The notes under the pieces: generated by a model
What the model was told of the DNA's origin: nothing
Seen by the model: the letters and a program-made list of their open reading frames with translations, nothing else
Database searches by the model: none
Position numbers and translations under genes: made by a program
Part shown: one piece after another, positions 5,744 to 24,624 of the stretch
Position numbering within the stretch: the stretch's first letter is position 1
How the letters are laid out: every line of letters starts with the position of its first letter
NCBI GenBank assembly: GCA_043819135.1
Contig: JBDRFG010000099.1
Location: 1 to 32,057 of the forward strand
Source: Candidatus Eiseniibacteriota bacterium
Lineage (GTDB): Bacteria > Joyebacterota > Joyebacteria > Joyebacterales > Joyebacteraceae
DNA length: 32,057 nucleotides
Reading direction: 5' to 3'

Positions 5744-6070
5744 ATGGTCTACGAGCTTATGAAACTGGGGCGGCTCCGGTACGTGGGCGAACGGAGCGCG
5801 AAGCTGGTTCACGACAGGTGGCACCAGGATTGCCAGGGATGCGGACTGAATGAGGCGGTCCGAAGAGGTGACGCCGTCGGGTTCGAACCGGACTCACTCG
5901 ACGGGGCGCTCCTCGAGGGGTACGAGTACTGTGAGGCGTGCCATGACAAGACGGAGCCCACCCCGCCCAAATGGGCAGACGTCGCGACGCCGGCGGCAGA
6001 GCACGCGGCATTTGAACAGCAGGCGCTCGCGCAGAGGCGAGAGCGCGAGAAGGCGAGAATCACAGGGTAG
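5744..6070 (+). CDS. Small putative metal-binding protein, Ada zinc-binding-domain-like
   Basis: YVG..SAKLVH..C..VGFEPDSLDGALLEGYEYCEAC resembles the YxG..H..C..F.S..A..GYxxCxxC pattern. GAGGG RBS before ATG 5744 and a terminator downstream. Confidence 0.65.
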   Translation: MVYELMKLGRLRYVGERSAKLVHDRWHQDCQGCGLNEAVRRGDAVGFEPDSLDGALLEGYEYCEACHDKTEPTPPKWADVATPAAEHAAFEQQALAQRREREKARITG

Positions 6071-16180: not shown

Positions 16181-17833
16181 ATGTCGCGGATTGGGGGAGA
16201 AGGTCATGAGGAGCGTCCTGGTGTTTGTGGCGTTGTGTCCGGTGATCCGGCGCAGCTCACCGTCACCAACGAGAGGAACGAGATGCCCATCCACGTGGCC
16301 ACCGCGGGCGGGCACGTGGATGTGGTCCGACTGCTGCTTGACCGCGGGGCGCAGGTCGCTGCGGGTGACAACGAGAACAGCACCGCGCTCGATGTCGCCG
16401 CGATCTTCGGCCACCTGGACCTCGCCAGGTTCCTTGCCGAGAGAGGAGTCGATCCGAGACACGGTGACATCAACGGCATGACGCCGCTTCACTTCGCCTG
16501 CTACAACGGGAACGCTGACATCGGCGGCTTTCTAATCGGGCACGGAGCCGACGTCCGAGCGACAACGAACTCAGGCAGCACGCCCCTTCATGACGCCTCC
16601 TTCAATGGTGACATAGAGTGCATGAACCTCGCTCTCGACGGCGACGCGATCATCGACGCGACGGAGGGTGGGTTTGCGGACGTGGCCGCGCGACTCATAG
16701 AGCGCGGGGCCGACGTGCACGCCGAACCGCCGGACGGAATGACGGCGCTCATGCGGGCTCTGGACCAGGGGCACCTCGAGATGTCGCAGCTGCTGTTGGA
16801 CAGCGGTGTGGACGTCAACGCCGCCGACCCCGACATGGGGCGTACGGCTCTCCATACCGCGTCACTGAGAGGGTGGCCCGACGTCGCGGGGCTCCTGCTC
16901 GAGAAAGGGGCGGACCTTTCGGCCGAGGATGCCTACGGCATGACCCCGCTCGAATACGCGGGGAAGTACGGCCACAGGGACGTGGCCGAGCTCCTACAGT
17001 CCCGGGGCGCCGCCGAGGCGCACATGGCTGAGAACTACGGCCGCTCTCCGGCGCTCGACAAGAGCGTGAAGAGCGGGCAGGCGTCTCTCTGGTATCTGGG
17101 GCACTGCGGATGGGCGGTGAAGACGGAGGAGCATTTCCTGATCTTCGATTACTGGAGTGGCGCCGGTGCTCCCCCGGCGACGCCGTGCATCACGAACGGC
17201 CACATCGACCCCTCCGAGCTGTCAGATGAGCACGTGTATGTCTTCGTTACTCACGAGCACGGCGACCACTACGATCCGGTCATCCACGAGTGGAGCGACG
17301 CGCTGGACAACGTGACGTACGTCTACGGCTTCAGGCCGGAACTGACCCCGCAGTACCGGACCGCCGAATACGACGGTCCCGAGTACGAATACGTCGGTCC
17401 GAGAGAGTATTGTGAGCTGGACGGTCTCAAGATCAGGACCGTCCGGGCCAACGACGGCGGCGTAGGGTTTCTGATCGAGGTCGACGGGCTCAGCCTCTAT
17501 CACGCCGGAGATCACGCTGGCTGGGCGGACGGCGAGCGCGACGGCTTCTTCGGGGAGATAGACTACCTCGCGCCCCACACGGAAGGGCTCGACCTGGCAT
17601 TCCTCAATGTGACCGGTTGCCACTCTCACGATCCGGATCGCCTGCTGGAAGGCAACGTCTACACGCTCGACGTCATGAACCCGAACGTGCTCATACCGAC
17701 GCACGCGATCGGCCGCGAGTACATCTACGCGGGGGCGGCGGAGAGACTCGCGGAGGAAGACGTGAGAACCAGCGTCTGCTGCCCAAAGAACCGCGGGGAC
17801 AGCTACTTCTACAACGGGGAAGCAATGGAGTAG
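16181..17833 (+). CDS. Ankyrin-repeat plus metallo-beta-lactamase-fold fusion protein, 5' end probably frameshifted
   Basis: Multiple TPLH/TALH ankyrin repeats, then WYLGHCGW..THEHGDHY..YHAGD..IPTH. The best RBS-ATG (16206) is in another frame. Confidence 0.85.
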   Translation: MSRIGGEGHEERPGVCGVVSGDPAQLTVTNERNEMPIHVATAGGHVDVVRLLLDRGAQVAAGDNENSTALDVAAIFGHLDLARFLAERGVDPRHGDINGMTPLHFACYNGNADIGGFLIGHGADVRATTNSGSTPLHDASFNGDIECMNLALDGDAIIDATEGGFADVAARLIERGADVHAEPPDGMTALMRALDQGHLEMSQLLLDSGVDVNAADPDMGRTALHTASLRGWPDVAGLLLEKGADLSAEDAYGMTPLEYAGKYGHRDVAELLQSRGAAEAHMAENYGRSPALDKSVKSGQASLWYLGHCGWAVKTEEHFLIFDYWSGAGAPPATPCITNGHIDPSELSDEHVYVFVTHEHGDHYDPVIHEWSDALDNVTYVYGFRPELTPQYRTAEYDGPEYEYVGPREYCELDGLKIRTVRANDGGVGFLIEVDGLSLYHAGDHAGWADGERDGFFGEIDYLAPHTEGLDLAFLNVTGCHSHDPDRLLEGNVYTLDVMNPNVLIPTHAIGREYIYAGAAERLAEEDVRTSVCCPKNRGDSYFYNGEAME

Positions 17834-17925
17834 CGGCGCGGGAACCGGTCCGACCGACCGCCGGCCCGGGCGGGCACGCAAGGTTGAGCGCCCACGGATT
17901 CCGGCAAGCCAGACCAACTACGGTA

Positions 17926-17954
17926 TTGACAATCGCACGGAAACGCAGTATCCT
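17926..17954 (+). promoter_or_regulatory. sigma70 promoter for the pro-peptide/activator pair
   Basis: TTGACA-17 nt-TATCCT. Confidence 0.75.
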
Positions 17955-18099
17955 CCCTTTGGACTCTGCAGTGAGAACCCCACCAGATAGCTGTGCTGGC
18001 TCGTCGCCAGACGCTTCGGTTGACTTCCGGACTCGGAGGCGACGAGGCTCAAGTTGAACGGACCGGTACCAGATCATATGCCCCCCAAGGAGGATGATC

Positions 18100-18468
18100 A
18101 TGAGCGCGAGGAGATTGCTCGCCCTGCTTGTGGTCGTTGCGTTGGGCCTGCTTCTGATGTGCCCCACGGCGCTTTCGCGCCCCGAACATCCACTCGTTGA
18201 CGCCACCGGTGCTGGTGACGCGACCAACCCAGGCGACGAAGAGGATCCGGATATTCCGAACGGGAATATCGACGGGGACGACGACAACTGGGACAAGTCC
18301 GCCGTCAACGGATACACGGTGGCGGAGTCGTTCGGCGAAAGCGGTGGTGTGGTGTGGGGAGCAGACACCAGCGGATCCGAGGACGTGCTTTCTCGGATGG
18401 AGATCAGTCTGAGCATGCGGCTCACACTGCTCCTGCAGTCGTGGGTCATTTTCTCCGGCTTGCGCTGA
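18100..18468 (+). CDS. Small secreted acidic protein (122 aa), putative signalling pro-peptide
   Basis: AAGGAGG RBS 6 nt before ATG 18100, signal peptide ending PTALS, acidic GDEEDPD/GDDDNWDK core and hydrophobic C-terminal helix. Confidence 0.8.
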   Translation: MSARRLLALLVVVALGLLLMCPTALSRPEHPLVDATGAGDATNPGDEEDPDIPNGNIDGDDDNWDKSAVNGYTVAESFGESGGVVWGADTSGSEDVLSRMEISLSMRLTLLLQSWVIFSGLR

Positions 18469-18489
18469 TCTCTGTACGGGAGGAAGCGA

Positions 18490-21400
18490 TTGGCTCGGAA
18501 GCGACCAGACATCAAACCTGACCTGAGTGCCCAAAGAGGACCGGGCGAACACGGGAGTCCGAACTCCCGCGAGTCCGCCGTCTCCGTCCTCCGCATGGGT
18601 CAGTTCTATCTGGAGTCCGACAGCTACTCCGATGCGATGGAGTATCTCAAGCGTGTCGACGAGGACGCGCTGCGATCACAGCTGTCGGACGCCGAGGTCG
18701 TAACGCTGTACGCAGGTCTGGCCCGGTGCTGTCTCGGTCTTGGCAGACACGACGAGGCCAGAGGCCACGCCGAGAAGGTCGCCACCCTTGCCGCCCGTCG
18801 TGAAGACCCCGTTTCCGCCGCGGAGGCAGACGTAATCCTGGCGAAAACGGAAGGCAAGAGCGGCCGTTTCAGGAAGTCCCTGCGCGCGGCCGAGAGGGCG
18901 TACGCGGTGCTCAGGAAGGAACCGGACAGCGCCCTGCTGGCAGAAGCCAGCAAGGCGTTGGGTGCCGCGCACGCGGAACTCGGGAACATGACGGCCGCGA
19001 GGGACTGCCTCATCGACTGTCTCGTGTGCAACAGACGCCTCGGCAACGAAGAGGGAGTCGCCGGGGCGTACAACAACCTTGGTATTCTGGCCAAGCGGTC
19101 GGGCGATCTCTCCACCGCCATCGATTACTTCGAGCGGTCCCTCGAGATCGACAGGAGACTGGGAAGGCCCGCCGCCATCGCGCGCCGGCTGAACAACCTC
19201 GGCGTGGCACTCTACAGGTACTCGCGGTGGAGCGAGGCTGAGGAGAATCTCAAGCAGGCGTGGGAGATCTACACGCACCTCGGCGCCGCCCGAGACATCG
19301 TCGCGGTGGAGTCGGCGCTGGGCAACCTCTGCCGGGTCAGGCGCAACTGGAGGGGCGCACGCGAGTACTTCACGCGCGTGCTTCGCACCAGCCAGAAGGA
19401 AGGGTACCGCCGCGCGGAGGCGCTCGCCTTCGAGTTCCTCGGAGATCTTGAGAGAGACCAGGGACGATTCGACGAGGCGCTGCGGGCGCTTGACCAGGCC
19501 CTGGCCTGCGCCCACAGGTTGTCGTCCGTGAGCGACGTCATCGGTGAGGTGCTCAGGCGTAGGGCCGAGGTCTACCTTGCGCTAGGCCGCCTCGATGACG
19601 CCGAGCGGGACTGCACTTCCGCCCTCGATCTCTGTCGCAAGATCGGCGACAGGCTGGAGGAGGGAGCCGCCCTGAGAGTTCTGGCGGCTGTCTCCTACGC
19701 GAAGAGCGAACGTTCCGACGCCAGCGTGCTTTCCGCCCGGGCCGAACGCCTCCAGACGCGGAACGGGGACCCGTTCGCGCTCGCCATGACCGCTTTGACG
19801 GACGGTATAGGCATGCGACTGTCCGGCCGCGTCGACGGGAGCGTGCTGGACATCATGGAGTCAAGACTCTGTACGGCGGAGCAGCTCTTCGAGAGTATCG
19901 GAGCTCACTACTGGGTGGCCAGATGTTCCCTCGAGAGAACCAAGGCGCTCCACGCCGCCGGGAACGACGAGCGCTGTCGCGTCTGGCTGGAGAAGGCGCG
20001 CCCCGAACTCCAGAGGGTCGGCGACGAGATCGGTCTGGCGGAGCTCGTGATCCTGCAGCGTGAACTTGACGCCGAACTTGCCGAACGCGCCGCGCTGCTG
20101 CCGAGCAGGTATTCCGTGCTCGCGGACGCCTCGCTCCTGTTGCGAACGAGCGCCAGGGACCCAGCGGTCCTTCACGGGTTCGCGATGGCCGTGGCAGACG
20201 AGGTGTCGGCAGACCGGGTCGTGGTCTTTCGGCAGGAGGCGAACGCGCAGCCGCGTGTGGTGACGTCCTTCGGACGTACCGGCAGGCGATTGGCCGAGGT
20301 GCGGCGCCTTGTCCGGTCGGCGGTCGGTGGTGGCAGTCTCGCCGGGCCCTTCGTGTCGGCGGGGAAGCGGCCGGATGCACCGATGGCGCGGCGGCTCGCC
20401 GCGGTGGCTTTGATCCCGGCGGAGACCTACCCCGCGACCGACCAGACTCTTCTTCTCTACGCGGATCGCCTGAACGGCGATGGCGCGGCCGCGTTCAGTA
20501 GGTCGGACGTCGAGTTCCTCGGCGCGTCGGCCAGACTGCTCGCGGACACGCTTCGCGAAGGCTTGCCGCGTGCATTCGAGCGGTCGGGCGGCCAGAGACG
20601 CGAATCCCCCGTCCCCGATCTGCCCCGAGGGTTCATCACGCGGGACCCGGTCACGGCGAAGATACTCGCGAGCGTCACACGTCTGTGTGACAGCACTATA
20701 CCCATCCTGATGCTCGGCGAGTCCGGTGTCGGTAAGGACATTCTCGCCCGGGCGGTCCACGACGGCAGTTCGAGAACCGGTCGTCTTGTCGCCCTGAACT
20801 CGGGCGCCGTGCCTCCGCATCTGCAGGAGAGCGAGCTGTTCGGGCACGTGAGAGGGGCATTCACTGACGCGGACCGCGACCGCGCGGGACTCATCGAGTC
20901 CGCATCGAACGGCACCCTCTTCCTTGACGAGATCGGCGACATGAGTGCCGAGCTACAGGTCAAGCTCTTGAGGTTCCTGCAGAGCGGCGAGTACAGGCGA
21001 GTGGGGGACAGCGCTATCCGGACGAGCAACGCCAGGGTCGTATCGGCCACCAACAAGGATCTCCACGCCGAGGTGCTCGAGGGCGGATTCCGACGCGACC
21101 TGTTCTACAGGCTTAGCGCGTTTACGGTGGAGATCCCCCCACTGCGCGAGCGACCCTGCGACATCGTTCCTTTGATGCGCCACTTCCTTGCGACCTACGC
21201 AGAGCTTGAGGGCAAGGAGGTTCCGGGCTTCTCCGATGATGTCGTGGAGCTGTTCCAGCACTACGATTGGGCAGGGAACAACGTCCGCGAACTGGAGAAC
21301 GAGGTTCGCAGATGCGTCGCGCTGTGCGCGGAAGGTGAACCCATCTGTCTCGACCAGATCCGTCCCGAACTCGTTGTCATGCGCGAGGCCATCCTGGCCT

Positions 21401-21579
21401 CCGGCAGGGCCGCGCCAGGCGACGCGTTGTCCCTCAAGGATGAGGTCGAGGCGTTGGAGCAGGGCCGCATCCGCGACGCGCTGGCTCGGCACTCCCGGAG
21501 CAAGCTCGACGCCGCCCGGTCTCTTGGCATGTCGCGGACGGGCCTCTACACCAAGATGAGGAAGTACGGGATGGAGTGA
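18490..21579 (+). CDS. sigma54-dependent enhancer-binding protein: TPR array, GAF-like domain, AAA+ and Fis-type HTH
   Basis: TPRs (AYNNLG, LNNLG, SALGNL), Walker A GESGVGKD, ESELFGH..GAFTDA, LFLDEIGD, FRRDLFYRL, GNNVRELEN and AARSLGMSRTGLYTKM. TTG start after GGAGG. Confidence 0.95.
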   Translation: MARKRPDIKPDLSAQRGPGEHGSPNSRESAVSVLRMGQFYLESDSYSDAMEYLKRVDEDALRSQLSDAEVVTLYAGLARCCLGLGRHDEARGHAEKVATLAARREDPVSAAEADVILAKTEGKSGRFRKSLRAAERAYAVLRKEPDSALLAEASKALGAAHAELGNMTAARDCLIDCLVCNRRLGNEEGVAGAYNNLGILAKRSGDLSTAIDYFERSLEIDRRLGRPAAIARRLNNLGVALYRYSRWSEAEENLKQAWEIYTHLGAARDIVAVESALGNLCRVRRNWRGAREYFTRVLRTSQKEGYRRAEALAFEFLGDLERDQGRFDEALRALDQALACAHRLSSVSDVIGEVLRRRAEVYLALGRLDDAERDCTSALDLCRKIGDRLEEGAALRVLAAVSYAKSERSDASVLSARAERLQTRNGDPFALAMTALTDGIGMRLSGRVDGSVLDIMESRLCTAEQLFESIGAHYWVARCSLERTKALHAAGNDERCRVWLEKARPELQRVGDEIGLAELVILQRELDAELAERAALLPSRYSVLADASLLLRTSARDPAVLHGFAMAVADEVSADRVVVFRQEANAQPRVVTSFGRTGRRLAEVRRLVRSAVGGGSLAGPFVSAGKRPDAPMARRLAAVALIPAETYPATDQTLLLYADRLNGDGAAAFSRSDVEFLGASARLLADTLREGLPRAFERSGGQRRESPVPDLPRGFITRDPVTAKILASVTRLCDSTIPILMLGESGVGKDILARAVHDGSSRTGRLVALNSGAVPPHLQESELFGHVRGAFTDADRDRAGLIESASNGTLFLDEIGDMSAELQVKLLRFLQSGEYRRVGDSAIRTSNARVVSATNKDLHAEVLEGGFRRDLFYRLSAFTVEIPPLRERPCDIVPLMRHFLATYAELEGKEVPGFSDDVVELFQHYDWAGNNVRELENEVRRCVALCAEGEPICLDQIRPELVVMREAILASGRAAPGDALSLKDEVEALEQGRIRDALARHSRSKLDAARSLGMSRTGLYTKMRKYGME

Positions 21580-21779
21580 GCCAGCCCGAGAGGCTCCTCG
21601 CGCCACCCTGCCACGGCCAGCGGACACCCCCCAACACGCCCCCCCAGACATGCGGAACGCCTACGGGCGGACCGCTCGTCGTTACTCTCCCGCGGTACTG
21701 GACGCCGTCGCGCCCTCGCGCCACCGCAACCCACTCTCTTCTCCACCACGAGCCGCCCGCCAGCGTTTCGGCAGCTTGC

Positions 21780-21828
21780 TGACACTGTCAAGACGTCGGG
21801 AACCCGACGACCTGTCGTGATCGTGACG
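21780..21828. promoter_or_regulatory. Candidate upstream activator sequences (tandem YGTC-N8-GACG palindromes)
   Basis: CGTCGGGAACCCGACG (21794-21809), TGTCGTGATCGTGACG (21813-21828) and TGACACTGTCA (21780-21790), about 200 bp upstream of a sigma54 promoter. Confidence 0.5.
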
Positions 21829-22021
21829 TTCCCCTAACCTCCGATATCCGAACAGGATAGGTGCGCCTCATGGGCCGGGTCCGCGACGGTGTGTCGCGGA
21901 CGCTCCGAAACGCCCATAACACTGCATTCGGCACGAACTCAAAAAGGGCTTTAACTGCTTGTCACTGAAGGAGTTACAGTCTGTCTGCGGCAGCCCGACT
22001 CGGGCGCTGCAGACCGGGTAC

Positions 22022-22037
22022 TGGCACGCTTAATGCG
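22022..22037 (+). promoter_or_regulatory. sigma54 (-24/-12) promoter
   Basis: TGGCACGCTTAATGCG, GG-N10-GC, downstream of a sigma54 activator gene. Confidence 0.8.
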
Positions 22038-22047
22038 GTTCTGAGAG

Positions 22048-22528
22048 GCGGAGCGCTCTTGCGCGGGGGTTGGTCCAGTTGTCCACAGCATCTGATCTGT
22101 CGTGGAGAGCGCACCAGAAACTGACAGTCGAGGCCCGTCGTGTAGGAGCGACGACCTGGCTGCGGCTGACGTGTTGCGGCTGACGCGCCCGGACCAGGAT
22201 GAAGCTGGAAGGAGGTGGTGCGGCAGGAGGAACCCGACCCGACTCTGGTGAAGGGGTTCCCCAGCTGTTGGGTCAGCTACTGCAGAGTTCCCCGGAGTTC
22301 TTCGCGACTCCCCGCCGTCTGTCTCAAGACGGGGGCCCGTCCGCCAGCAGGCCTCCTGACCTTAGTTCGGGCGGGGCGCCGACCAGACTCAACTTCGCGT
22401 TAGTATCGTCGGGCCCGTTGACTCTTCGCTGTCTATCCGGTAGGGGGTGTGTTCCGTTTCGGACAGCGAGGAAGCCGGCGGGCTCGACGTACGAAGGAAT
22501 CCCCGCGGCCGGCGGCCGCGGGGGTTTC
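22048..22528 (+). ncRNA. Putative sigma54-driven structured RNA of unknown family
   Basis: Bounded by a sigma54 promoter and a terminator-like hairpin, with no convincing ORF, several stems and a GGA cluster. Confidence 0.4.
22498..22528. terminator. GC-rich hairpin, probable (bidirectional) terminator
   Basis: AATCCCCGCGGCC-GGC-GGCCGCGGGGGTT followed by TC. Confidence 0.65.
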
Positions 22529-22578
22529 GCCCTGCCCGACCCCGACGCACGAGTGGGGTCGCATCTCACCCTCAGAGT

Positions 22579-24624
22579 CTACTCCATGATGTGGTCGAAG
22601 ATGAATGTGTAGGAGCCGGCGAGGTCGCCGGTGAGCTTCGCACGGCCGGACACGCCGTGCCCGAACTCGGTCTCCTCTTTGTAGAGAACGTCCTTCCCGA
22701 GCTTCTCCAGGACCCAGGCGAATCTGCGCGGGTCCGACGGGGGAACGCGCGGATCGTTGGACCCGGCGGTGACGAGGAGCGGCACGCGGACGTTGTCCGC
22801 GAAATACACGGCGGAAAGCCCGCGGGTCATATCGCTTCCCAGAGGGCCGAACTCCGCCTCGTGCGCCTCCACGAACCCGGGATTGCCGTGTTCGATCGTC
22901 CAGTCGATGTCGGACACCCCGACCTCCGATATCCCGCAGGCGAACTTGTCGGGTGCGTGTACGGCCAGGTAGTTGACGGTGTACCCTCCGTACGAAGCTC
23001 CCCAGATCGCCGTCCGCTCGGGGCTCGTCCAACCCTCGGCAACGAGATAGTCCAGAGCGGCCTCGGCGTCTTCGAGCGCCTGATAGCGACCGTCGAGATT
23101 GTCGGCTCGCTCCCACGTGGGGCCATACCCCGTTGAGCCCCTGACGTTCGGGAAGCAGAAGACCACACCACGCGCGAGCGCGAAGGCGATGTTCCTCTGG
23201 AACGCCGGAACGCTCTGGCCCGAGGGACCGCCGTGGTAGTTGACGATGCAGGGGTTCGAGCCGTCGCGGGCCGCGCCCTCCGGGACGTAGAGGAGAGCGG
23301 GTACCAAAGTCCCGTCAGTACTGGGATACCGCACGACGTTGACCTCCACGCCGCTGAAATCGTGTCCGAACGTGGATATCGACGCCACCTGCTCCAGTTC
23401 ACTCCCACTGACGCCGAGGTAGAGCACGGTCGGCGGTGTGGAAGGGGAGTTGAAGTCGAACACCATGTCGCCGCTGTCGTTGACCGACGGCGACCCTATG
23501 ATGCCCACGCCGGGCGCCGGGAGTTCGGTGACATTTCCCTCAAGGTCCAGCCTGACCAATTCGTTGTAGCCGTCCCTGTTGAGGGCGACTCCGGCGACGC
23601 CGGTCTCGCGACTGAAGGTGATGCCGTCTATCTCAACGTCGGGAGCGTAGATCACGCGCATCTCGTTGGGTTCGACCGGCGCGTCGGCGGGGTCCATCAG
23701 CGTCACCTTGTAGAATTCGTCCTCGCCCGACAGAGCATCCGACACCATCAGGATGCTGCCGTCACTCGCGTAGTAGGCCTCCCTGACCTCGATGTAACCC
23801 GTGAGATCGGAGGTCTCCCTGTTCGACACGTCGTATTCGAAAAGCTGTAACTCGGAAGCGGTCTTGAAGCGGACACAGAGGACCTTGCCGTTGTGGTAGT
23901 CGACGGGGCCGAACGGCATCGTCTCCGTGTAGAGTGTCTCCACCGCCGCCGAAGCGAGGTCGTAGCGGGCCAGCCAGAAGCCCCCCCGTTTCAGGTCCAT
24001 GATGTGGAAGAAGAAACCGTCGTCGCCGTCGCGGAAGGGGGACGAGAACGCCAGTTCGCGGTCCACGAGCAGAGGCCTGTAAGTTCCGTCCCTCTCGAAC
24101 CGGTATATGTCCCAGTTCTCGTCGCCCTGCTCCATCGCCTCCAGGTAGAGGTAGTTCCCGTCGGGATCGAGGACGTAGTCGCCGAGGTCCATGTTTCGCT
24201 CTGTCCATGCGTTCGGGGTGATCTGCGTCGGCCACCCCCACGGCTCGTCGACGTAGAAGAGCGCTCCCCTCTCGCCGGTGATGCGCATCTGGAAGTAGAT
24301 CCGACCCGTGTTGTCGAGGTCGGGTGATGCGACGTAGTCGATGGACAGCACGTCGCTCAGATCAGCGTAGACGGACGGCCAGTTCGACGACGACGTGATG
24401 CGCTCGTCCGTGATCTGATTGTGTCTCTCGATGAACTCGGCGACGCGCGAGTCGTCCGTGGCGATCCAGGGATCGACCTCCCGGAGAAGAGCCTCGACGC
24501 GGTCTTCTCCCGCATACTCCGACGCTCCGCCGGAGGCGCCCAGCGCTGTCGGCGCACCCATCACTGCAGAAATCGCGACGACCGTCATTACTGCGAACGT
24601 AGCTGCACGAGCCTGCCTCCTCAT
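22579..24624 (-). CDS. Secreted S9 family (prolyl oligopeptidase/acylaminoacyl peptidase-like) serine peptidase
   Basis: Signal peptide, propeller-like N-domain, YHGGP, PNVRGSTGYG, WGASYGG (Ser), NDPRV (Asp) and GHG (His). AAGGAGG RBS. Confidence 0.95.
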   Translation of the reverse strand: MRRQARAATFAVMTVVAISAVMGAPTALGASGGASEYAGEDRVEALLREVDPWIATDDSRVAEFIERHNQITDERITSSSNWPSVYADLSDVLSIDYVASPDLDNTGRIYFQMRITGERGALFYVDEPWGWPTQITPNAWTERNMDLGDYVLDPDGNYLYLEAMEQGDENWDIYRFERDGTYRPLLVDRELAFSSPFRDGDDGFFFHIMDLKRGGFWLARYDLASAAVETLYTETMPFGPVDYHNGKVLCVRFKTASELQLFEYDVSNRETSDLTGYIEVREAYYASDGSILMVSDALSGEDEFYKVTLMDPADAPVEPNEMRVIYAPDVEIDGITFSRETGVAGVALNRDGYNELVRLDLEGNVTELPAPGVGIIGSPSVNDSGDMVFDFNSPSTPPTVLYLGVSGSELEQVASISTFGHDFSGVEVNVVRYPSTDGTLVPALLYVPEGAARDGSNPCIVNYHGGPSGQSVPAFQRNIAFALARGVVFCFPNVRGSTGYGPTWERADNLDGRYQALEDAEAALDYLVAEGWTSPERTAIWGASYGGYTVNYLAVHAPDKFACGISEVGVSDIDWTIEHGNPGFVEAHEAEFGPLGSDMTRGLSAVYFADNVRVPLLVTAGSNDPRVPPSDPRRFAWVLEKLGKDVLYKEETEFGHGVSGRAKLTGDLAGSYTFIFDHIME

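Follow-up and report, generated by a model that had tools for sequence, protein, structure and literature searches.

Contig JBDRFG010000099.1 of a Candidatus Eiseniibacteriota bacterium (assembly GCA_043819135.1), whose entire 32,057 nt are called the window here, raises a question: do a small, apparently exported protein and a cytoplasmic regulator encoded side by side between positions 17,926 and 22,528 form a peptide-sensing system, and what would such a system control? The cassette comprises a two-gene operon, in which a gene for a 122-aa putative precursor is followed by one for a 1029-aa sigma54 activator with tetratricopeptide repeats (TPRs), and a sigma54 promoter 3' of the activator gene. 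A preliminary description had likened this layout to the RRNPP(A) systems and stopped at the promoter; it missed the non-coding RNA that the promoter appears to produce, the predicted pairing of this RNA with the operon leader and a signal-less mini-peptide encoded elsewhere in the genome. We consider the chances slightly better than even that the cassette carries out RRNPP-like peptide sensing by a TPR-sigma54 activator, with RNA feedback on its own operon. The gene order, the conserved motif, the promoter, the enhancer spacing and the RNA structure on which this reading builds are features of the compared sequences themselves.

Is the gene pair a constant association? In the family of the host genome, probably Ca. 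Effluviviaceae (G000; 2.69 Mb, 64% GC, 92% complete; L-, G- and g-numbers denote the loci, genomes and genera of the comparison set), a small open reading frame (ORF) with a signal peptide lies directly 5' of the activator gene in 36/38 loci with enough upstream DNA. GDD[DE]xW is present in 35 of these 36 small ORFs and GDDDGF in one. The alignment of 34 precursors (mean column identity 29%) revealed that only G59, D60, D61 and W64 are invariant and that, past the signal peptide, conservation is limited to this short motif. The preliminary description had proposed a consistently present upstream ORF with a conserved, co-varying motif as a test and had pointed to two acidic stretches: GDDDNW is indeed conserved and paralogue-specific, whereas the GDEEDPD stretch shows no conservation across paralogues. 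The motif follows the receptor clade, being GDDDNWD in clade A, to which the window belongs (13/13), GDDDRWG in clade B (18/18), and G-W-H or E-W-T in clade C; clades A and B each form one branch of the TPR tree (quick IQ-TREE). We inspected ~45 further GDD[DE]xW matches, and those outside the precursors and the mini-ORF described below lay inside unrelated long frames or in unlikely frames.

A close relative of the activator was found in 24/24 same-family genomes searched (best E <=1e-275), often as 2-3 paralogues per genome, and 16 genomes outside the family gave AAA-level or generic matches only, or none. A scan of species genomes with the TPR-GAF alignment yielded 44 close loci (labels Ca. 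Eisenbacteria, Ca. Effluviviaceae and 'bacterium') and 4 weak ones; the same architecture also occurs in distant proteins, which are labelled Eisenbacteria or Gemmatimonadota where a label is given. One weak locus led to a second phylum, in which 52/61 genomes gave a match at E<=1e-30. There, too, the small ORF is found: a signal-peptide ORF of 96-117 aa lies directly upstream in 29 of the 30 best loci, and GD-x-D occurs in 28 of these 29 precursors, compared with a mean of 4.0 and a maximum of 9 in shuffles.

The precursor begins with an ATG at 18100, 6 nt 3' of AAGGAGG, and contains both GDEEDPD and GDDDNWDK. The sigma70-like promoter ahead of it is the single match within 17500-23000 (shuffle mean 0.3), and a similar promoter precedes 33 family leaders. 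By hand inspection, the signal peptide was predicted at aa 1-26, and a basic n-region, a hydrophobic core and an AxA-like site were recognized in 34/34 family precursors and a lipobox in 0/34; their length ranges from 107 to 133 aa (n=34). The promoter, the ORF with its signal peptide and both acidic stretches, and its end 21 nt before the activator gene had all been described correctly, export being judged by hand inspection. The C-terminal helix was likewise confirmed, but its description as hydrophobic needs correction: the helix is amphipathic and moderately hydrophobic (KD19 1.25 vs 2.64 for the signal helix) and is therefore no clear transmembrane anchor. The gap between the two co-transcribed genes ranges from 21 to 98 nt across loci. 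The precursor has no Pfam or NCBIfam match, and a search of the ESM Atlas gave only unnamed clusters for it, under 0.9. In the second-phylum precursors L214, L216-L219, L221, L224, L230, L235, L236, L238 and L239, the amphipathic helix is not C-terminal and precedes a GDADD motif.

The activator gene starts with TTG at 18490. Domain searches identified TPR_12 (E 9e-38), Sigma54_activat (PF00158; residues 716-880, E 3e-57), an AAA lid and HTH_8 in the protein and no receiver domain, and no kinase family was found among the 26 window ORFs scanned; neither the receiver nor, among these ORFs, the cognate kinase of an NtrC-type two-component system was found, and the length, the long TPR array and the absence of both partners agree with what had been described. 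By contrast, the attributes of a sigma54 enhancer-binding protein are all present: an AAA+ domain with Walker A/B motifs, a GAFTGA-type loop in the variant form GAFTDA, a Fis-type helix-turn-helix (HTH), an enhancer, a -24/-12 promoter and an rpoN gene in G000. In the AlphaFold2 model (pLDDT 87.7), 12 helix pairs at 26-510 are followed by a capping helix and an alpha/beta domain at 540-689. The GAF-like domain noted previously is supported by the strand order of this alpha/beta domain and not by Pfam, which gave no GAF match in the activator even at E<=1, so that the label derives from the model. The loop reads G[AS]FTDA in 38/41 activators; the NorR variant G266D, which carries the same G-to-D change, is active and escapes GAF repression, according to the accessible part of PMC2941729.

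If a peptide binds the TPR array, traces of this should be visible in the groove. On the first helices of TPR5-6, both phyla retain Asn and basic residues: N196 in 31/31 family and 26/30 second-phylum receptors, K202 in 31/31 and 28/30, and N236 and R/K243 each in 61/61 receptors of the two phyla. By standard TPR numbering, we take positions 195, 196, 202, 203, 232, 235, 236 and 243 to be ligand-groove positions, with 232 and 235 presumably being groove positions 2 and 5. K202 has been lost from two second-phylum receptors, exactly those without a GD-x-D partner, and both are long branches. Clade A receptors combine R232 and N235 (11/11) with N-W-D in the peptide, and clade B receptors combine D232 (17/17) and T235 (16/17) with R-W-G; this paralogue-specific charge swap between receptor position 232 and the peptide mirrors the motif difference and, judged from the alignments, is suggestive. 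The best structural matches of the TPR domain are LGN/Pins, TSK and OGT, which bind extended peptides. A complex prediction with TPR aa 25-535 and a 32-aa motif window (31-row alignments) gave a score of 0.27 against a mark of 0.32 and counts neither way.

Another important question is what the activator controls. A -24/-12 site lies 3' of the activator gene in 38 of the 39 loci with enough downstream DNA, the exception being a one-base variant; the window contains two matches vs 0.26 expected, the other of which (TGGCAC-N6-TGC, 5819-5833) has no tandem enhancer. Both enhancer-like palindromes and the promoter were found where they had been reported, and the palindromes recur at the distances given in Table 1 (0.00-0.04 expected per region); the pattern itself was drawn up from a few of the loci, and a frameshifted one was excluded from the count. 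Of the 62 sigma54-like sites in G000, only those beside the two TPR activators have the tandem palindrome, and therefore each regulon looks local. A site for integration host factor, searched for with our own pattern, is unsupported (3/37 loci vs 1.3 expected).

Comparison of relatives indicates that the output of the window's sigma54 promoter is a non-coding RNA with conserved structure. Coding output was rejected: the stops of the 137-aa and 62-aa ORFs 3' of the promoter vary between relatives, and in each of the three frames most codon variants are non-synonymous (2:6, 3:5, 1:6). Folding of 22048-22565 beats 100/100 shuffles (z -3.95), a hairpin with a TAGGAG loop is present in 11/13 clade-A RNAs and the GCTGACGC element in 12/13, and 12 of the 50 pairs of the clade-A consensus are changed on both sides (13 copies). 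The gene 3' of the RNA region varies between genera and is often convergent; the GC hairpin that follows the RNA in the window is unconserved in other genomes of its genus. The RNA has no Rfam match at the gathering score. CsrA is encoded in G000, and CsrB/RsmZ-type features amount to one conserved GGA loop only (ANGGA 0-5 per RNA); AANAANAA repeats of the CrcZ type number 0 in 13 RNAs. An RNA run in which the share was small yielded two contigs, one of 380 nt identical to 21687-22066 and one of 183 nt from the motif region of a relative; as transcription cannot be demonstrated from contigs, neither is used as evidence.

The RNA may act on the very operon from which its activator is made. A 12-13-bp helix is predicted between 22278-22290 and leader positions 17961-17973, and 22247-22259 pairs with 17975-17984 (z -5.7). 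Our own accessibility-aware duplex model, in which the cognate pair was compared with 250 random G000 leaders, gave p<=0.05 for cognate pairs in 7/11 clade-A genomes and <=0.16 in all; it did so in three genera in which both partners differ in sequence, and in g4 and g7 the pairing is retained despite such differences. In clade B, p<=0.05 was reached in 6/17 cases with the whole RNA and in 12/17 with its invariant loop, and the leader-by-RNA matrix is mostly block-diagonal by clade. Plain duplexfold output is noisy outside the window's genus. On these sequence comparisons, we lean moderately towards regarding the pairing as real. In clade-B leaders such as L031, L032 and L057, a conserved nested hairpin or pseudoknot-like 5' element was observed. 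The GCTGACGC element of clade-A RNAs is complementary to one strand of this element, and the clade-B loop to the start of several clade-A leaders; cross-talk is therefore possible.

The paralogous clade-B cassette has a different output. Its transcripts consist of an invariant 5' loop, a hydrophobic peptide of 24-26 aa ending in SP[FV]LG, and 3' hairpins; the peptide shows 15 synonymous vs 10 non-synonymous variants (16 codons, 21 copies), and one copy is without an ATG. A radical S-adenosylmethionine (SAM)/SPASM gene lies 3' of the clade-B promoter in 20/20 loci checked. In G000 (L071:2547-12575, G000:C62, minus strand), the RNA with a 24-aa peptide is followed by the radical SAM/SPASM gene and then by two Cys-rich precursor ORFs, a beta-propeller protein and an ABC exporter. 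Such a cluster for peptides made by the ribosome and modified after translation (RiPPs) is a typical quorum-controlled output and so supports peptide sensing. By eye, the radical-SAM protein resembles a prenyltransferase in its N-terminal part, yet the match has an E of 0.11 only. The L071 region also contains a kinase, a sigma54 response regulator and a ZraP-like gene. In two loci, a cascade was found in which one activator's sigma54 promoter drives a second precursor-activator pair (L043/L113 and L115, the second precursor of L043 carrying GDDDEW).

Can the motif act on its own? A genome-wide search revealed an 11-codon ORF coupled by an ATGA overlap to a DUF4342 gene (loci L135, L175-L179, L183). 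DUF4342 was matched in 9/31 family genomes, and in 6/6 DUF4342 genomes of the window's genus it is followed by M-I-[HQ]-[SF]-G-D-D-[DA]-[KQ]-W-[DAS]-stop. The ratio of synonymous to non-synonymous codon variants is 8:6 in frame vs 2:12 and 5:10 out of frame, and of the 19 coupled mini-ORFs in G000 no other contains GD-x-D. That these residues are under selection in a peptide without a signal sequence suggests a role of the motif as a short ligand, probably a cytoplasmic one. At L129, L133 and L155, the mini-ORF is followed by a sigma70-like promoter and ~350 nt of strongly conserved non-coding sequence, possibly a structured leader or RNA, before a small ORF. As a candidate importer for a secreted peptide, an OPT-family transporter is encoded in 30/31 family and 60/61 second-phylum genomes; a PTR2 transporter was looked for and not found. 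The OPT matches in G098 (C1:407273-408957 and 434466-436533) are fragmented and contain in-frame TGA stops, which could be assembly errors or recoding.

Table 1 Coordinates of the cassette's features (window positions unless a genome and contig are given)
Feature	Position	Strand	Basis
Sigma70-type promoter of the two-gene operon (TTGACA-17-TATCCT)	17926..17954	+	sequence
5' leader, start inferred from the -10 box	17961..18099	+	sequence, duplex tests
Predicted target of the sigma54 RNA in the leader	17961-17984	+	duplex tests
Ribosome-binding site (RBS) AAGGAGG in the leader	18087-18093	+	sequence
122-aa precursor: Sec-type signal peptide, acidic linker, amphipathic C-terminal helix	18100..18468	+	sequence, alignment
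GDDDNWD, likely ligand motif	18274..18294	+	G, D, D, W invariant in 34 family precursors
1029-aa TPR(12)-GAF-like-AAA+(GAFTDA)-HTH sigma54 enhancer-binding protein	18490..21579	+	domain search, AlphaFold2
Distal enhancer palindrome (YGTCN-N6-NGACR), -228 from the -24 box	21794..21809	.	at -225 to -229 in 30/37 loci
Proximal enhancer palindrome, -209 from the -24 box	21813..21828	.	at -207 to -210 in 37/37 loci
Sigma54 -24/-12 promoter	22022..22036	+	38/39 loci
Structured non-coding RNA, ~440 nt (ends inferred), putative stand-alone product of the sigma54 promoter	22048..22490	+	folding, comparison
Conserved 5' RNA elements: TAGGAG-loop hairpin and GCTGACGC (two copies here)	22132..22185	+	comparison
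RNA segment complementary to leader +1 to +24	22247..22290	+	duplex z -5.7; p 0.016
3' long hairpin, ~28 bp	22408..22488	+	two-sided changes in several pairs, four genera
GC hairpin between the RNA and the convergent S9 peptidase gene, possibly a terminator	22498..22526	.	sequence
11-codon ORF with GDDDxW motif, no signal peptide	G000:C41:5030-5065		genome-wide motif search

How might these parts work together? The precursor would be exported, likely by Sec, and then trimmed; a short peptide around GDDDNWD would likely be cut out and likely re-imported, probably via the OPT-family transporter, and the returned acidic-Trp peptide would bind the cytoplasmic TPR groove. On the tandem enhancer, the activator would then open the adjacent -24/-12 promoter, and the sigma54 RNA would feed back on the 5' end of the operon mRNA, with other targets probable. 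Pairing at the extreme 5' end would most simply stabilize the message and give positive feedback, a guess made because binding at +1 resembles the stabilization of ska mRNA by FasX; the signal-less 11-aa peptide would act inside the cell, as agonist or antagonist. What we infer are the steps of export, processing, import and binding, together with the sign of control.

A number of observations weigh against this reading. With 107-133 aa, the precursor is long, its motif is internal, ~60 aa from the C-terminus, and a simple pheromone model assigns no function to its conserved amphipathic tail. Among the matches listed for the TPR domain, those ranking highest by sequence and structure are eukaryotic or designed TPRs, and no RRNPP receptor is among the best 60 of 84 PDB sequence matches or the Foldseek ranks to 50. 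Matching of motif and clade is expected from co-inheritance alone and, since clades A and B are each one branch, is partly just that; for the same reason, the charge swap represents one evolutionary event. The small ORF is missing upstream of two divergent family receptors, the orphans L048 (G013:C270) and L049 (G024:C83). The mini-peptide is limited to one genus and is absent behind DUF4342 in 3/3 genomes of genus g5. As for import, the Opp/Dpp binding protein (PF00496) was not found in G000, at 92% completeness, and is present in only 13/31 family genomes, being missing from several near-complete ones; OPT transporters may be nutritional in peptide fermenters. The pairing was spotted by eye and tested post hoc in the same data, in relatives that are not independent; genus g8 gave 0/3 at p<=0.05, a gapless-helix test was weak (p<=0.05 in 2/12 for clade A and 0/17 for clade B), and the own leader ranks 121/2128 (clade A) and 225/2128 (clade B) genome-wide. 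Blocking of the target site produced no consistent change in RBS accessibility, and Hfq was not found with the PF17209 model.

Some of these observations would be explained by a cell-autonomous monitor of export or of the envelope, in which unexported or unprocessed precursor, or a fragment released at the membrane, binds the TPR domain from inside and reports secretion or envelope stress, not density. The scarcity of Opp, the long precursor with its conserved amphipathic helix (3' of the motif here, 5' of it in many second-phylum precursors) and the co-transcription of precursor and activator across a 21-98-nt gap all agree with it, the mini-peptide, which has no signal sequence, suggests that export is not required for the motif to act, and the conservation of the groove fits equally well. 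However, paralogue-specific sets of motif and receptor, 2-3 per genome, suggest separate channels, which would be superfluous for a generic monitor; clade B has a RiPP cluster as its output, genes for secretion or chaperones were not seen among the outputs, and the near-universal OPT transporter offers an import route. We consider such a monitor unlikely, although it is the likeliest of the alternatives.

It is considerably less probable that the peptide and the TPR domain make no direct contact, with the small protein held in the envelope by its helices, having another membrane partner or role, and the TPR domain sensing a different cytoplasmic protein that carries an acidic motif. This explanation would suit the hydrophobic segments at either end of the precursor, the two receptors without a partner gene, and the binding of stretches of larger proteins by the TPR domains of nearest structure (LGN/Pins, TSK, OGT). 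It nevertheless leaves unexplained why conservation is confined to a motif of 4-7 residues, why the loss of K202 coincides exactly with the absence of GD-x-D, and why selection acts on a free 11-aa copy of the motif.

For peptide sensing proper, the direction of control remains to be considered. NprR, PlcR and Rgg are receptors activated by their peptides, whereas Phr on Rap and AimP on AimR switch the receptor off, and the clade-A output, an RNA alone, is like the aimR-aimP-aimX layout. Because the paralogous cassette fronts a RiPP cluster, activation by the peptide appears, by analogy, somewhat likelier than inhibition. An activator that is on by default and shut off by imported peptide at high density, with the RNA as a low-density product, could draw on GAFTDA being the variant that frees NorR from GAF repression (accessible part of PMC2941729), but a single NorR mutant is a poor guide to how a TPR domain exerts control, and the paralogue's RiPP output fits activation at high density. 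We consider this alternative about as improbable as the absence of direct contact.

Two observations concern the surroundings of the cassette. Directly 5' of it, at 16181-17833, the window encodes an ankyrin-repeat protein fused to a metallo-beta-lactamase-fold domain. G000 also encodes tRNA-Sec, and its tmRNA (tag ADYTPAYVC) was called on two contigs.

The cassette is real, conserved and apparently unpublished: no description was found in the literature searched, most subscription papers being beyond reach, and the main text of the Effluviviacota paper (PMC11323493), as far as available, has 0 occurrences of 'quorum', 'sigma' and 'tetratricopeptide'. The accessible part of PMC10075063 describes the sensing of peptides inside the cell by TPR receptors for Gram-positive Bacillota and their mobile elements; if the preferred reading is true, this logic would extend to other phyla, with a sigma54 remodelling output and probably a different importer. 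A bolder view, which we hold only tentatively and consider rather doubtful, is that of a widespread, undescribed class of peptide signalling in uncultured phyla outside Bacillota, in which exported acidic-motif peptides returned by OPT transporters gate TPR-sigma54 activators, each channel has its RNA-leader loop, signal-less mimics tune the response and one channel leads to a radical-SAM RiPP cluster. The candidate ligand of 7-11 residues, an enhancer and promoter mapped to the base and a single receptor position that predicts channel specificity make the system testable in E. coli. Moreover, the cassette points to an unstudied family of sigma54 RNAs, a leaderless mini-peptide missed by annotation and a peptide-controlled RiPP cluster, and orthogonal peptide-gated sigma54 switches are potentially useful tools.

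How does the cassette compare with known systems? LuxO-Qrr and CbrB-CrcZ are sigma54 activators with small RNA output, but these activators are phosphorylated response regulators and their RNAs depend on Hfq; a small RNA output is shared, while here there is no receiver domain, Hfq was not found and the RNAs lack AANAANAA repeats. The peptides of RRNPP(A) systems (Rap-Phr, NprR-NprX, PlcR-PapR, Rgg-SHP, AimR-AimP) are re-imported by Opp/Ami, which the distribution of PF00496 (13/31 family genomes) does not match. The likeness to these systems lies in the gene for a small, apparently Sec-type precursor adjoining that of a cytoplasmic TPR receptor (a 21-nt gap here, adjacency in 36/38 loci), a short conserved ligand-like motif, paralogue-specific pairs, orphan receptors and an adjacent target promoter. 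According to the accessible part of PMC10075063, RRNPP(A) propeptides are Sec-secreted and 10-100 aa long, the receptors have 250-500 aa with TPRs and HTH or phosphatase output, and the genes are adjacent; the cassette differs in a 1029-aa receptor with sigma54 AAA+/Fis-HTH output, in precursors of 107-133 aa with an internal motif and an amphipathic tail, and in a host outside Bacillota in which Opp is mostly absent. Because both sizes fall outside these ranges, the cassette is not an RRNPP member, and of the analogy drawn previously, adjacency, the TPRs and the motif stand, whereas membership fails on both sizes; Opp was not found in G000.

Closer parallels exist for individual parts. FasX-ska and RNAIII provide precedents for a regulatory RNA as signalling effector, FasX stabilizing ska mRNA via its 5' end (available part of PMC4691137); the RNA described here is sigma54-dependent, has its own operon as predicted target and shows no sequence relation to them (no Rfam match). 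For the 11-aa mini-peptide, RopB-SIP of Streptococcus pyogenes is a precedent, as an 8-aa leaderless peptide binds a TPR receptor; SIP, however, is the sole ligand, is hydrophobic and adjoins its receptor (PMC6565748, in the part available), whereas the mini-peptide is acidic, unlinked and additional to signal-bearing precursors. Finally, in the streptococcal Rgg/SHP-RaS-RiPP systems, a peptide-sensing TPR regulator is located directly 5' of a radical-SAM RiPP cluster, as is the clade-B paralogue; according to the accessible part of PMC13361665, the regulator there is of the HTH type and the motif hydrophobic, in contrast to the sigma54 activator and the acidic motif found here.

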